From: Bacilli bacterium
Lineage (GTDB): Bacteria > Bacillota_I > Bacilli_A > RFN20 > CAG-449
Assembly (NCBI GenBank): GCA_900755065.1
Contig: CAAEFC010000006.1
Coordinates: forward strand, 31,828-95,827
Reading direction: 5' to 3'
DNA: 64,000 nt
In this document: positions 11,174 through 16,776 of the stretch, in pieces
Position numbering within the stretch: the stretch's first letter is position 1
How the letters are laid out: the number at the start of each line of letters is the position of its first letter
Notes under the pieces: model-generated
Databases searched by the model: none
What the model was told of the DNA's origin: nothing
What the model saw: the letters and a program-made list of their open reading frames with translations, nothing else
Program-made: the position numbers and the translations under genes

Positions 11174-13177
11174 TTAAGTTAGAATACGCTCGTATTCATC
11201 GACTTTATCAATGATTGCATTTGAATTCTTTTCTATGTATTCAACAACCGAGGAACAACCTTGCAAATCAATTTGATCGCAATACATATTGTTTTCACGA
11301 CAATATTTTGAGCAAGCTGCCGCGTTAACATATTGGTTTGCAATCAGTATAACAACTTTGAATTTTTGCTTTAAGAGTGTAAGTTGAGGTTCAGTAATTT
11401 TGGGCAAGTATGTTGAAACTACATTTGTGAAGCCTAATCCGATCAGTTTGAAATAATCTTCATAGGTGGTTACAATTATCACACTCTTTTTGTTGGATTT
11501 AATTGCTAAATTGTAAGAATAGAGGTTTTGAGAACGTTCAAAGTATTTTGTGTTGGGGTACTTGAACAATTGTTGCTTGTCGGTAATGTAAAAATCGAAG
11601 CAAACAACATTTCCATTTGCGTCAATCGTAGGAATGATAATGCTATTTCTCATTTTATCACAATAGTTACCTTTAGCCGATTGCAATACTAATTTAGCTT
11701 CTTCTAACTGAGTTATCGAATATGACTTTTGCTTTGTCATATAATTCATAAAACTGTTAAAAGAGTTATCGTGAAAGCCTATACCGAGTTGAACGATAGT
11801 TTTTCCTTGTATCCCCCAAGAATGTAAGATATCAATAGCGGAGCTTGCCTTTGCGTTAGTTTTGAGTTGCTCGTGATAATATAGGGCGGCCTCCCGCATC
11901 ACTTTGGAAATATCAACTTGCTCTTTGGGATGTAATTCGATACTTGCCAAAGAAGCCAATTGCGAAACGGCAGTTTTGTAATCTAAAGCTTTGGTTTTCA
12001 TCAAGTATGTAATAACATCTCCCCCGGTAGTACAAGAAAAACAATAAAACGACTTTGTTTCGGGATAGACTACCAAAGCATCACTTGTACCGCAAAAAGG
12101 ACAATGAGCGTGATAATTCTTACCTTTTAAAGTTACATCTTGCTGTGAAGAGATATACTCAACAATATCAATCGTGTTTTTTACTCTGTTAATTACTTCA
12201 GCCGAAATACGCGCAGACGCTTGGGAGTGTGTTGAGCTTGGAGAAACTAATTTCTTTATTGCTAAAGAAACCTTATTTTCATCATTGGCTCCCGAGACGA
12301 TCATTTGAAGCCACAACCCTATTGCAGCATTGCGGCGATAGATTTGAGCAATTGTGTTGATGAAAGCTTCGTCCGATATCTCCAACAAAATGCGTTTGAG
12401 CCATTCTCTATAAGGAATAAACTTTTCTCTTTTATAGCGATATATACCGATAGTAAGTTTTCTCCAAGTGCTTTTTTCTCGTTGTCTAATACGTTCACGG
12501 GTAACATCATATTTCTCGCCAAGATTTTGTAAGGTTATAGCTGATGGGGTCAATATTCTGCTTACGATAATATCCCCGTCGCGTTCTGCCATAAATTCAC
12601 GATTGGAACAAGCATCGGTAAGAAGTTCAATGATCTCATTATAGACTTTGTCAGATAATTCTGTATCCGTCGAGGGAGCAGTAACATACTTTAAGCTGTT
12701 CTCAGCTTTTGTCTTGATTGAAAGCCATTCTTCCAACGCCTCACCTGTTGAACGCACTGTTGAATATTCTTGGTCTGATACGTCGCGAGATGTTCTTTCT
12801 TTTCTTGTCCGTTCCTTGGCAACAAGAGAATCTTTGTTTTCGGCAAAAAACTCATTGCACGACTTGTTGTAGGCAAAATAAGTTTCTGCGTTAGAGGAGG
12901 CGAATTTTTCGCTTTCTTTGCGATTTTTGTATTTTATAAAATACTCACCTTCTTTTCTTGAAACGTAAAGACGATAAAACTCACCGTGTTTACTAATTCC
13001 GATTATTTCGCCGTTGGTGCGAATAATAAAGTCACTGTCCAAATCAAGCATATGGGCGCAAATGGCATTGAACGTATCAATCAACTCTTGATTGTTATTA
13101 AAGAATACAGAAATATGCTCTCCTGCTTCTAACATTGATAACTCAATATTTTGCTTGCTTTTGGACATAGAAAACAC
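11174..13177 (-). CDS. primase-like protein: sigma-70 region-4-like HTH + CHC2 zinc finger + DnaG-type catalytic core + apparently degenerate Toprim
   Basis: LGEKYDVTRERIRQREKSTWRKL (sigma r4-like HTH). HCPFCGTSDALVVYPETKSFYCFSCTTGGDVITYL (CHC2). RNSIIIPTIDANGNVVCFDFY matches the DnaG core motif. The downstream segment VIIVTTYEDY...KVVILIANQYVNAAA has a Toprim-like Glu but ANQ where DxD is expected. RBS AAGGAGG, 9 nt after the helicase stop. Confidence 0.5.
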   Translation of the reverse strand: MFSMSKSKQNIELSMLEAGEHISVFFNNNQELIDTFNAICAHMLDLDSDFIIRTNGEIIGISKHGEFYRLYVSRKEGEYFIKYKNRKESEKFASSNAETYFAYNKSCNEFFAENKDSLVAKERTRKERTSRDVSDQEYSTVRSTGEALEEWLSIKTKAENSLKYVTAPSTDTELSDKVYNEIIELLTDACSNREFMAERDGDIIVSRILTPSAITLQNLGEKYDVTRERIRQREKSTWRKLTIGIYRYKREKFIPYREWLKRILLEISDEAFINTIAQIYRRNAAIGLWLQMIVSGANDENKVSLAIKKLVSPSSTHSQASARISAEVINRVKNTIDIVEYISSQQDVTLKGKNYHAHCPFCGTSDALVVYPETKSFYCFSCTTGGDVITYLMKTKALDYKTAVSQLASLASIELHPKEQVDISKVMREAALYYHEQLKTNAKASSAIDILHSWGIQGKTIVQLGIGFHDNSFNSFMNYMTKQKSYSITQLEEAKLVLQSAKGNYCDKMRNSIIIPTIDANGNVVCFDFYITDKQQLFKYPNTKYFERSQNLYSYNLAIKSNKKSVIIVTTYEDYFKLIGLGFTNVVSTYLPKITEPQLTLLKQKFKVVILIANQYVNAAACSKYCRENNMYCDQIDLQGCSSVVEYIEKNSNAIIDKVDEYERILT

Positions 13178-13186
13178 CTCCTTAGA

Positions 13187-16100
13187 TTAGTCGTTTTCGA
13201 GTTTATTACGTAATTTTACCAACATTTTATCGGTAATGGTTTCGCTATAATGAGTTCCTTCATAAGTCGGATGCAATACGGGATACATTCCTTTTGTTTG
13301 AATAATAAAGTGATTTTCAATCAACCATTCAATGATCACATTCAAATCATCACGATTGACCGCGCTTAACTTCCCATACTCTGCCACTTCATTAAGTTTT
13401 GCTTCTGTAATGCGTTTGCTTTGAGAACCGCGAAGCACATCAATCAACACAGTAATACCGTAAAAACGTTTCTCGCTAATGTGAGAAAGACATTGCAATG
13501 TGATATAGACAATCTCATTAAGATCATTATTTTGATATGCAATGGATTTTACAGTTGCCTTTTGGATGTTAATAGGCTCAGCAGTATTTTCTTGTGGGCG
13601 TGATTTTAGATTATTCTTGGGGGCTTTATTTGATGCTTTTGGGAACTCTTTTGCAGGGGCAGGATCGGGAGATAATTTCAGCATTTCATAATACTGATAC
13701 TGTGCAATCGTTCTTCCGCAACCGGTTCCATCCTTTTTGTAGTTGGTACAACCAAGGAAATAACCGTTTTCTTTGGCGGGTTTGACAATCAGATAGCCAT
13801 CACGGCATTGATCGCACTTCAATATTGAAAGCTTTCCTGCACCATATTCATTGGTCATAAAGCCGCACACCTCGGGTTCATTGGTACAGATATGTAGGCG
13901 TAATCCATATGCGTTTTTATATCTGAACTGCAACGGATAACCACACATAGGACAAGTCTTTTTTGCAAGAGTGTTTTGTGGAGGCTCTTCGTTCCAATTT
14001 CCGCGAAGGACTACATTTTTGTAATCCCTCTTGATTTCAAGCAGAAATTCCGAAGGATTCTGTTCGGGAGCAATGAAGAATACGCGATTCTTCGTTCTTG
14101 TCATTGCAACATAGAACAAACGACGTTCCTCGGCGTAGTCAATCGAGCGATCTCCCTTGATTACAAAAGCCAAAACGGGATCATCTTCAATCTTGGAGGG
14201 GAAGCCATAGGTTTCATTTCTGCCGTTTACAACGATTACGTTATCGTATCCAAGACCTTTTGATGCGTGCGCGGTCATAAACGTAATGTCAAGCTTGGGA
14301 TACTTAACACTCTTTATCTTACTTCCTCGATCAATATACTCGAATAATCCGGATTTCTCTAATTTATCTCCATCAAAGCCAAATCTTCCGAGCAACAGAA
14401 TGGACGAATTTATCGGCTTTCCTTCCTGTTTGTTATACTCCATAATTTGCTCTAAAGCAACCTCAACCGCGTGAGCTATTGCATAGTTTGCTCCACTCTT
14501 GTTATCGGCGTTGGCTTTTTTCAGAGTTCCATCATAAGTGTATATGATGACGGGATCTACGATGTTTTTAGGGGATTTTAGCTCTTTTGTAATTTGAGAG
14601 TCATTCTTTTGAATAAAGTTTCCTGCAATATCAATGACTTCTTGCGAGTTACGATATGTCTTAACTATCTTAAGAAGCTTGGCATATCCCATCTTTTCTT
14701 CAAATTTTGTAAAAAGCGTGATGTCAGAGCCACTGAACGCATATATGGATTGCCAATCGTCACCGACGGCAATTATTTTTGCATCTGTAACCTCTGCGAG
14801 CGCAGTAACCAAATCAAATCTTTGGCGAGAAATATCTTGATACTCATCAACGATTATGTACTTGAAATCAAGTTTTTGTTTCATTTCTTTGACTTCACGA
14901 AGAACACGCGCAGACTCGTTAATCATATCCTCAAAGTCAACAGCATTATTCTCATTCAAGTATCTTTCGTACTCCAAATAACAATCATTACAAATATCCA
15001 AGAACAATCTTGTACGCACGTTTTGCGTAGAGTGGTACATACGGTTAAATTCTTCCGCAGTAAATCCGTTCGTCTTAAAGTTGGTGATAAATCTACAAAT
15101 GAGGTTGACCAATTTGCGGATGTAGCGGTTTTCTTCTGATGCGATCAGCTTTTCCATAACCTCTTTGTTAGAGCGAGGGGTTAAAACGAAGCCTTCGTTT
15201 TCCAATTCTTCTTTTAAGTGCTCCAACAGAGATCTGCGATCAGTGTATTGCGAAAAAGTATATATAAGCGTTGTTCCGTGCTGTTTATGGAGTGTTACTT
15301 TATCGTTGATTGCCTTCTTATATGAAGCAAGCTCGTCCTCACTAAAACGGTCATTTTTGCCGTCTTGTGTTATTCCGAAATGCTCTATGTAGGCAACCTT
15401 ATCTCCTTGACGGATAATAAAGTCGGGAGTATAAGGCTTACGCGCAAGTTGAATATCGTATTTGTAAAGAGGCTCATATTCATAGTCGATATTATTCAAA
15501 TACAAGAAGTTGGCAATCTCTACCTCTTGATTGGAACGCATAACTTCGCTTTGAATGGTTACAGATTTCTTGGCGCGAATATCCATTATCTGTTGCTTAA
15601 ACTCATTCAGATCACTGCGCAGAGTAGCAAAATTGGATTTTGCTATCTTGTTAAAGAAGTTATTGAGGTCATCACCCTCATATGGAGCATCGAAGTAGGA
15701 TGCAAAGAACAGTATCAAATTATTTACAAGGCTTTCGTTCTTCAAAATAGAATTTCTAAAATAATCTTGAAGCACAAAATACAGCTTTGAATTATCAACA
15801 ATGTTTAACTTTTCATCCGTCTGTTTGCGCAAAATAGCGTTTCCGGTAGAGTGGAACGTAGCAATTGGGCAATCAATCTTCAAGTCCTTGTTGAGCTTGT
15901 CCCGAAGTTCTTGAACGGCTTTGTTAGTAAAAGATACTACGAGAATTTGCGAAGGCTGAACGCCTTTTTTCTCAACTAAATATTTAACCTTGGCTGCAAC
16001 GGTCGTGGTCTTTCCCGCGCCCGCACCGGCAATAACCAAGCAGTAATCTTCGTCAGTTAAAATAACACGACGCTGATCTTCATCAAGTTTAATTTGAGGA

Positions 16101-16701: not shown

Positions 16702-16741
16702 CATCCATACCACCTCATCATAAGTCAATAAGATATAAGTA

Positions 16742-16776
16742 TTATAGCACATTCTTATTTGGATTTCAATAGTATA
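16742..16776 (-). promoter_or_regulatory. candidate promoter of the xis-helicase-primase operon (extended -10 TGcTATAAT; TTGAAA 15 nt upstream)
   Basis: Reverse complement reads TTGAAAtccaaataagaaTGcTATAAT, upstream of the xis RBS. Confidence 0.25.

Follow-up and report, generated by a model that had tools for sequence, protein, structure and literature searches.

The window analysed here is a stretch of 64,000 nucleotides (nt) from a contig of a Bacilli bacterium (CAAEFC010000006.1, assembly GCA_900755065.1). It contains a three-gene operon that encodes an excisionase-type helix-turn-helix (HTH) protein, a helicase of superfamily 1A (SF1A) with a nuclease domain embedded in its motor and a relative of the primase DnaG that appears to have lost all catalytic motifs. 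The operon is best explained as accessory cargo of a Tn4451/Tn6104-type mobilisable element and not as the replication machinery of that element. As to its function, we tentatively propose, at a little less than an even chance, that the helicase-nuclease is an effector and the DnaG-like protein its non-catalytic adaptor or sensor of primase origin, the whole probably being a conflict or defence module.

All three open reading frames (ORFs) are present on the minus strand at the positions given in Table 1. An earlier note on this stretch had an excisionase-type HTH protein heading the operon and this was borne out, since the protein scores 63.9 bits against TIGR01764 'excise' (cutoff 28.8) and thus belongs to the excisionase family; it also matches HTH_17 at 3e-15 (56.6 bits, cutoff 27). 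Its start had to be corrected. Direct reading of the sequence places the promoter within the HTH ORF as first listed, and therefore the start was moved to the ATG at 16704, which is preceded by a GAGGTGG site and gives 60 amino acids (aa). The DnaG-like gene starts with the ATG at 13168, 18 nt past the helicase stop and 8 nt past AAGGAGG, and public gene calls agree on both corrected starts. The gap between the HTH and helicase genes is 26 nt, and no convincing terminator was seen within the three genes. The single strong promoter, the gaps of 18-26 nt and the ribosome-binding sites together indicate that the three genes form an operon, as judged from this structure.

The -10 element of the operon promoter and a block upstream of it are conserved in two related chromosomal loci, L049 and L001 (at ~9700-9760 in both), and the block CCTAC-C...TCGACT-TA, just upstream of the tandem units (to 16830), is invariant in L049, L001 and L003. 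The tandem 20-nt units and the upstream block are a candidate operator of the HTH protein, which is probably the regulator of the cassette and would then repress the cassette's own strong promoter. The protein also scores 74.4 bits against MAD1 (NF047737), under the cutoff of 80, and no other mad genes are present beside it. The HTH gene accompanies the helicase into chromosomal sites without a recombinase, which is evidence against a role as recombination directionality factor of the element. A terminator-like hairpin with a T-run (GCCGTTATGTAACGGC TTTTTCTTTT) is located at 16873-16888 on the plus strand, just upstream of the operon promoter and pointing rightwards; no plus-strand gene ends there.

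The helicase has the full UvrD-type SF1A motor that the earlier note had described (Pfam UvrD-helicase at 1e-53, with UvrD_C). In 32 diverse relatives with 30-67% identity, on which all conservation values for the helicase are based, the motor residues K162, D550/E551/Q553/D554, GDDWQ 578-582, R615, H743/K746/G747 and T799/R800 are invariant. Of the curated families, DNA helicase IV (NF008276) matches best, with 292.8 bits under an equivalog cutoff of 543, and the NCBIfam equivalogs PcrA (191.8 bits, cutoff 911), Rep (170.4, cutoff 951) and UvrD (149.2, cutoff 1144) are not reached either.

Alignment to the structures of UvrD and PcrA shows about 240 extra residues (about aa 226-470) between motifs Ia and II. 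This insertion contains the alpha-beta-beta-beta-alpha-beta core fold of PD-(D/E)xK nucleases, modelled by AF2 with a pLDDT of 86-97. The four best matches of the insert profile in the PDB are all T7 endonuclease I (E about 0.002), and the alignment passes through the catalytic Asp of YTPDF and the Glu of E-x-K, so that D358 (in Y-x-P-D-F) and E371 of the helicase align to the catalytic acids as acidic metal ligands. E324, D358, E371, K399 and H403 are invariant in the relatives, and H372 and G374 nearly so. We conclude that the nuclease fold of the insert is real and Vsr-like at fold level, and its conserved residues predict nuclease activity. The Vsr/DUF559-like insert with a PDF…IEH pattern that was noted earlier therefore stands as to its fold; its length of ~80 aa does not, as the insertion measures ~240 aa with a core of ~130 aa. 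The insert profile matches 1617 representatives at 50% clustering, 789 of them at E ≤ 1e-10, and among the matches listed, full-length proteins (800-1300 aa) hold the insertion at about the same position. It matches only 11 loci among 2.9 million viral contigs, so the insert-bearing helicase is not a typical phage gene.

Two further predictions of the earlier note, topoisomerase-type C4 zinc ribbons and a RecQ-C-like winged helix, were both recovered. Zn_ribbon_Top1 scores 23.7 bits in the window helicase, under the Pfam cutoff of 32, with two stretches matching on the isolated segment; it matches 22 of the 32 relatives (best E 8e-27), and the cysteines C848, C851, C870, C877, C894, C897, C916 and C926 are each at least 90% conserved. 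The C-terminal module is variable, with RQC in 7/32 relatives and HRDC or RNase_T in others. In the proposed mechanism, the helicase IV-like motor with its embedded nuclease would translocate on DNA and cut it, while the two zinc ribbons and the RQC winged helix would keep hold of DNA that is single-stranded or branched. The 90%-identity cluster that contains the window helicase (373 members) also holds 664-aa DnaG-like proteins; this may come from a read-through or fused ORF in some assemblies, or from a clustering artefact.

The DnaG-like protein has Pfam matches to Sigma70_r4 (aa 214-241), Zn_ribbon_DnaG (325-416, 1e-21) and DNAG_N (433-557, 5e-16), and no Pfam match to Toprim. It aligns with Aquifex DnaG (2au3) through aa 611 and also with Geobacillus DnaG structures. 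AF2 models its N-terminal domains with confidence, and the sigma 4.2 recognition-helix signature 'TRERIRQxE' is kept. The earlier note had given this partner as a 667-aa protein that joins a sigma-70 region-4-like HTH to a CHC2 zinc finger and a DnaG core. The sigma-4 HTH, the DnaG zinc ribbon and the core stand, whereas the length is 664 aa and the finger is not CHC2: the ribbon fold and three Cys persist, while another Cys stands in place of the His and one residue is deleted, which gives a C4 finger (CPF-CG...CFSC in all members for the canonical CPFH...CFGC).

Twelve family members were compared in one alignment with four canonical DnaGs, which keep the catalytic motifs. Every alignable motif is absent from all twelve: motif II is DFY for GGR, motif III is variable for KYxNS, motif IV is T/S-T/A/D/N-Y-x-D/S for EGYMD (TTYED in the window protein) and motif VI is of the S-V type for DPD (SVV in the window protein). 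The ANQ that had been noticed in place of the metal-binding DxD of motif V was confirmed by this alignment; the family is variable there and has a 4-residue deletion. The score against DnaG primase (TIGR01391) is 177.7 with a cutoff of 283.6. The DnaB-binding C-terminus is absent, as the protein ends ~50 aa past the Toprim, and matches to PF10410 and PF00772, seen in canonical DnaGs, were not found in it. To judge from these losses, the protein is a relic of DnaG primase that is predicted to be catalytically dead. It would keep the zinc ribbon and a nucleic-acid-binding scaffold and could not make primers.

About 14 clusters share this architecture, and the next matches are canonical DnaGs of ~585 aa with ~30% identity. 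The twelve aligned members, at 38-96% identity, have intact ORFs with ~90 invariant and ~70 nearly invariant positions. Since these are maintained despite the lost motifs, the family seems to be kept by selection for a non-catalytic role. There are also copies that are truncated at the N-terminus (485 aa), short (350 aa) or fragmentary. Three distant matches in non-gut metagenomes (L069, L070 and L071) have 29-31% identity to aa 210-656 and span ~2.9 kb, as if the protein were far longer or the match split; they might represent another architecture with sigma-4 and DnaG domains.

The element that carries the operon is nested inside the recombinase gene of another element. The outer ORF 10211-10405 covers no more than the N-terminal 42 residues of a large serine recombinase, and the ORF 22744-24159 a recombinase without its first ~60 residues. 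Removal of 10337-22623 joins the flanks (10211-10336 and 22624-24159) into a 554-aa ORF with no internal stop, and the rejoined junction (…DSNSIKNQ/KLLLGKY…) can be aligned position by position to the intact recombinase at 18357-20387. The insertion site is in the conserved N-terminal catalytic region of the outer recombinase gene. CAA/AA is common to both junctions, which is consistent with a 2-bp crossover. The same nested composite is present on every contig holding the exact proteins, all in human-gut assemblies. The element encodes the gene set of a Tn4451/Tn6104-type integrative mobilisable element (TnpX-like recombinase, TnpV, TnpW and Mob relaxase) in the order TnpV, DUF6809, operon, 1.3-kb gap, TnpW, serine recombinase and MobA/MobL.

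In this family, accessory genes are placed between backbone genes (PMC3158075; PMC5704250). The GC fraction of the operon is 0.36-0.39, compared with 0.44-0.49 for the backbone (0.49 for the recombinase and relaxase), in line with the AT-richness seen before. At a related locus, L063, the gene order is TnpV, HTH, helicase, short DnaG-like gene, Mob_Pre and serine recombinase, with ToxN adjacent; the pair thus follows TnpV, at the position of the resistance gene of Tn4451. The helicase/DnaG-like pair was found in at least three different element backbones. The low GC, the slot after TnpV in L063 and the variety of backbones point to cargo status. The ToxN gene (type III toxin-antitoxin/abortive infection) is located at 13121-13693 of L063 (-), directly after the serine recombinase.

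The promoter, HTH gene and helicase gene are a self-contained constant unit. Upstream of the helicase there is an HTH_17 homologue in the window and in L001-3, L008-10/47/48, L049/50 and L062-64, and only L004 is without it. In L008 (6467-6631) and L047 (9792-9956) this homologue was found upstream of the helicase by tblastn (62% identity over 55 aa) and is missing from the gene calls and from the list of ORFs of at least 40 aa; an unusual start or a degenerate gene is possible. Helicases that are 82-90% identical to that of the window are found at ordinary chromosomal sites, with no element genes and no DnaG-like gene, and for helicases with 75-90% identity the chromosomal position is different in each genome examined.

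The DnaG-like gene is always in the context of a mobile element, with serine recombinase, TnpV or DUF6809 in the available flanks, and in all cases with upstream sequence but one its upstream neighbour is an SF1 helicase. The long form of the DnaG-like protein is paired with the UvrD/RQC helicase in the window, in L008/L047 and in L043, where only the last 337 aa of the helicase are on the contig. In L062-64 the same helicase is paired with a short 350-aa form that is without the N-terminal half and is likewise predicted to be catalytically dead. In L005/L046, the upstream gene is a non-orthologous SF1B helicase (AAA_11/12; SMUBP-2, Sen1 and DNA2-like) with a C-terminal DUF2726, which is above the Pfam cutoff on the isolated segment and which we take to be a PD-(D/E)xK family. 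The loci of these 47-54% identical DnaG-like relatives share a conserved block of NUDIX, SF1B helicase-DUF2726, DnaG-like protein, peptide deformylase, … and DUF6809; in the variable islands around it there are also genes for a type IV restriction enzyme, PD-Lambda-5, DNA methyltransferases and further SF1 helicases.

Between loci, the helicase is 80-86% identical and the DnaG-like protein 47-68%. Defence genes in related islands comprise a type IV restriction enzyme, PD-Lambda-5, a NucC-like DUF6602 protein, ToxN and a pair of AAA and S8 protease genes. A metagenome scan with the full DnaG-like family alignment yielded 7 close and 3 distant loci, and one with the N-terminal domain gave no match. 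A scan of the genome collection with the N-terminal half gave matches to sigma-factor region 4.2 only and no true relative. Viral-contig scans gave no close relative of the helicase or of the DnaG-like protein. Near-identical DNA was not found on annotated plasmids or phages, and a protein search of these gave only canonical DnaGs that match the C-terminal half.

The DnaG-like protein thus adjoins two unrelated helicase-nuclease fusions, from which we infer a functional partnership in which it would be the adaptor or sensor of the effector. By analogy, we propose that it directs or licenses the helicase-nuclease, presumably in a physical complex. Either it would read the unwound single-stranded DNA, or its sigma-4-like and N-terminal domains would bind a factor of foreign or host origin. 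The exchange of the effector, the cargo position, the faster evolution of the partner and the defence neighbours suggest inter-element conflict or anti-phage/anti-plasmid defence as the most likely role. The helicase-nuclease cargo that the earlier note had weighed against a replication module is supported here for architecture and context, by the real nuclease fold, the AT-richness and the defence genes in several related islands.

Several points weigh against this proposal. Firstly, the Lys of the E-x-K motif is missing from the insert, which reads E371-H372-F373 with Phe at its place, and consequently nuclease activity is not certain; its part may be taken by K399 and H403, both invariant and located on the next helix. 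Secondly, PADLOC recognises no known defence system in the operon and gives generic domain-level matches only (GajB, a helicase and a DnaG-like protein that are both labelled as reverse transcriptase (RT)-associated). The adaptor or scanner role is drawn by analogy, and the comparison of gene neighbourhoods comprises about ten independent neighbourhoods. In L044, the DnaG-like gene has no upstream helicase and abuts chromosomal genes; the contig ends 200 bp downstream. Lastly, helicase homologues at 75-90% identity are located among housekeeping genes with no defence neighbours, a setting that fits a repair enzyme as well as a mobile defence gene.

A passenger repair or recombination enzyme is a serious rival, though less likely: a helicase IV/RecQ-like helicase-nuclease that processes branches or ends would serve the host, with the DnaG-like protein as an accessory DNA-binding subunit and no part in defence. 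Such an enzyme would agree with DNA helicase IV as the closest curated family, with the RecQ-like C-terminal modules, with the size of the helicase family and with chromosomal copies amid housekeeping genes, and the nuclease resembles the junction- or mismatch-specific T7 endonuclease I, Vsr, Hjc and Bax1. However, a site that differs in each genome marks a mobile cassette and not a syntenic core gene, and this cassette keeps its own promoter and regulator wherever it is found and is recurrent cargo of several elements, beside defence genes. A repair role also leaves the swap of helicase types around the DnaG-like protein unexplained.

More clearly unlikely is a module for replication, establishment or maintenance of the element, the other option of the earlier note, in which the helicase would unwind the excised circle and the DnaG-like protein would load or position the host priming machinery. 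The operon is indeed on an element with a relaxase and a recombinase, it adjoins a 1.3-kb non-coding stretch whose repeats could be an origin, and serine-recombinase elements such as SCCmec carry helicase-primase operons (PMC7581432). Nevertheless, the primase is predicted to be dead in all members and is without its DnaB-binding domain, the helicase has a conserved nuclease within it and is also found off the element, and the element family seems to need no such genes, as TnpX alone is enough for transposition according to a passage in PMC3158075 that cites Lyras 2004. For these reasons we disfavour this option; in addition, the pair occurs in different backbones, in L063 in the cargo slot, the repeats do not accompany it, and relatives on annotated plasmids or phages were not found. 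The active primase and the element-specific replicative helicase that make up helicase-primase modules of integrative conjugative and mobilisable elements are both absent here, and correct alignment restored no DxD to the Toprim.

The 1.3-kb gap between the operon and tnpW contains five dispersed ~31-nt repeats (core GGCTAC…TTGAGGGGATAT) at 16941-17689 and two tandem 43-nt units at 17267-17354. These could be an origin, an oriT, a binding-site array or decayed sequence. A conserved origin was rejected as the repeat core is missing from all 61 related loci compared, and a structured RNA was rejected because the gap has no Rfam match at E up to 1 and folds no better than shuffled sequences (z +1.7).

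A more specific form of the sensor idea, which we consider a long shot, is that of an 'integrated decoy': the DnaG-like protein would display inactive copies of two host factors often seized by phages, DnaG and sigma region 4. Anti-sigma proteins, T4 AsiA and phage G1 ORF67 among them, are directed at sigma region 4. Binding of a phage factor to this bait would release or recruit the helicase-nuclease of either type, which would then destroy the replicating foreign DNA. If so, bacteria would have a counterpart to the decoy domains that plant nucleotide-binding leucine-rich repeat receptors carry, and the pair would define a new two-component defence family on Tn4451-type elements. That the DnaG-like gene is a decaying, functionless remnant and an accidental neighbour of the helicase is most improbable, since the lost catalytic motifs and the truncated copies are outweighed by the intact and conserved full-length ORFs, the strong ribosome-binding site and tight coupling to the helicase gene, the confidently modelled N-terminal domains and the repeated pairing with two kinds of helicase-nuclease.

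If the proposal of an effector with a primase-derived adaptor is correct, the operon represents an undescribed type of module, in which DnaG lost its catalytic function and was recruited by a helicase-nuclease as its subunit for specificity or sensing, and which exchanges between two unrelated effectors. It would provide the first functional handle on a helicase IV-like family with embedded nuclease that comprises at least 1,600 clusters at 50% identity, and it would imply that conflict systems, besides antibiotic resistance genes, travel on the Tn4451-type mobilisable elements of gut Clostridia. The losses of catalytic residues predict that there is no primase activity, that the phenotype depends on the nuclease and that the proteins form a physical complex.

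Table 1. Positions of the operon, of the domains it encodes and of the carrier element in the window.
Feature	Position	Strand	Basis or remark
DnaG-like gene, 664 aa, predicted catalytically dead	11174..13168	-	Pfam/NCBIfam; structure and family alignments
DnaG RNA-polymerase core and degenerate Toprim without catalytic residues	11177..11881	-	DNAG_N 5e-16
DnaG-type zinc ribbon, C4 variant	11930..12205	-	Zn_ribbon_DnaG 1e-21
Sigma-factor region 3/4-like helical domain	12245..12748	-	includes 4.2 HTH at nt 12455-12538, 'TRERIRQxE'
N-terminal alpha/beta domain, aa ~10-113, YdhG/YjbR/Tll0839-like fold	12839..13150	-	
SF1A helicase-nuclease gene, helicase IV-like, 1102 aa	13187..16495	-	Pfam and NCBIfam matches, invariant motor motifs
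RQC-type winged helix, aa 990-1083	13247..13528	-	Pfam RQC 6.8e-12, 45.6 bits (cutoff 23)
Two topoisomerase-type C4 zinc ribbons, aa ~845-930	13706..13963	-	Zn_ribbon_Top1, conserved cysteines
Insertion in helicase, ~240 aa	15086-15820	-	alignment to UvrD/PcrA structures
PD-(D/E)xK (Vsr-like) nuclease core, ~130 aa, aa ~315-445	15161..15553	-	profile-to-PDB matches, AF2 model
Excisionase-family HTH gene (HTH_17), 60 aa	16522..16704	-	Pfam/NCBIfam scores
Operon promoter TTGAAA, 17 nt, TGcTATAAT (extended -10)	16741..16769	-	11/12 consensus positions and TG motif
Candidate operator, two tandem 20-nt units overlapping -35	16762..16803	-	TRF: period 20, 2.1 copies, 77% matches
Tn4451/Tn6104-type mobilisable element, 12,287 bp	10337..22623	.	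deletion restores 554-aa serine recombinase ORF
TnpV	10479-10850		1.6e-44
DUF6809	10847-11128		
TnpW	18052-18360		2e-14
Serine recombinase, 676 aa, TnpX-like	18357-20387		Resolvase, Recombinase, Zn_ribbon_recom, DUF4368
DUF3847 gene, 67 aa	20466-20669	+	by correspondence with L072 2500-2703
MobA/MobL relaxase	20879-22501		MobA_MobL 4e-73

The DUF3847 protein encoded between the recombinase and MobA/MobL may be an accessory protein of the relaxosome. Genes for large surface-type proteins with a low GC (0.30-0.37) are located at 2231-8348 and 25293-27275, on both sides of the disrupted outer recombinase, and encode Flg_new/Listeria-Bacteroides repeats, Big_2 and Peptidase_C39_2 domains; these genes are probably part of the outer element. 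Chromosomal sequence (enolase, Y-family polymerase and aro genes) begins near 27.8 kb.

The carrier resembles Tn4451, Tn4453 and Tn6104 in its TnpX-like recombinase with DUF4368, in TnpV, TnpW and Mob and in the accessory genes between them, and its MobA/MobL relaxase is that type found in Tn6104. It differs in having the helicase operon as cargo instead of catP or catD, and in its location inside the recombinase gene of another element.

Among known defence systems, DnaG-type domains are present in the validated or candidate systems UG29, UG6 and UG24 (PMC9226505), which speaks for the defence role. The PADLOC matches to 'RT-associated helicase' and 'RT-associated DnaG-like' cannot be combined into one such system, as they belong to different UG groups and there is no RT: a UG/Abi (abortive infection) RT, as in the defence-associated RT systems UG35, UG6 and UG24, was found neither in the operon nor in the element. 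Gabija also consists of a UvrD-family helicase and a Toprim-family partner in a small operon, and its GajB is the commonest PADLOC match. Here, however, the Toprim is predicted to be inactive and the helicase itself houses the nuclease, the GajB matches (at most 161 bits) cover the shared motor only, and a GajA-like gene (ABC ATPase with Toprim nuclease) is found neither in the operon nor in the element, which therefore contain no Gabija system.

Hhe was reportedly described by Gao et al. in 2020 as a single-protein SF1 helicase-nuclease anti-phage system. Nhi is another system of this kind, and these two and Gabija are the closest analogues in function. Like Hhe and Nhi, the window helicase joins an SF1 motor and a PD-(D/E)xK/Vsr-like nuclease in one protein and is found on mobile islands, and the partner helicase in L005 has the exact layout of Hhe (AAA_11/12 and a C-terminal DUF2726; PADLOC Hhe model 1e-15). 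Unlike them, the window helicase is SF1A, has its nuclease internally between motifs Ia and II and not terminally, and adds the zinc ribbons and RQC as well as the HTH and dead-primase genes; it falls outside both groups, and Hhe is absent from its 25 listed PADLOC families.

With E. coli DNA helicase IV (HelD), its best curated match, the helicase shares an N-terminal extension before the motor. Judging from the NF008276 alignment coordinates, E. coli helicase IV presumably is without the ~240-aa nuclease insertion, and it is not known to have zinc ribbons or RQC. A HelD-type RNA polymerase recycling factor was weighed from the literature and rejected, as the insertion in the window helicase is a nuclease and not a clamp arm. 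Zinc ribbon, DNAG_N subdomain and Toprim-like scaffold are common to the DnaG-like protein and DnaG, but the former adds ~320 N-terminal aa with the sigma-4-like and alpha/beta domains.

RecC and AddB are subunits of inactivated enzyme fold that read single-stranded DNA behind an SF1 helicase-nuclease. The likeness of our pair to RecBCD and AddAB is conceptual: an SF1A helicase-nuclease with a partner of inactivated enzyme fold. The partner is not homologous to RecC or AddB, there is no RecB-family nuclease and no evidence of Chi-like recognition. A published description of a helicase paired with a dead DnaG-like protein was not found; close helicase homologues are publicly named 'UvrD-helicase domain-containing protein', a helicase fragment (JGI) 'DNA helicase-4' and a DnaG-like relative 'hypothetical protein'. 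Modules of helicase-nuclease cargo are already known, and what is unusual here is the DnaG with a sigma-4 domain that is predicted to be catalytically dead.

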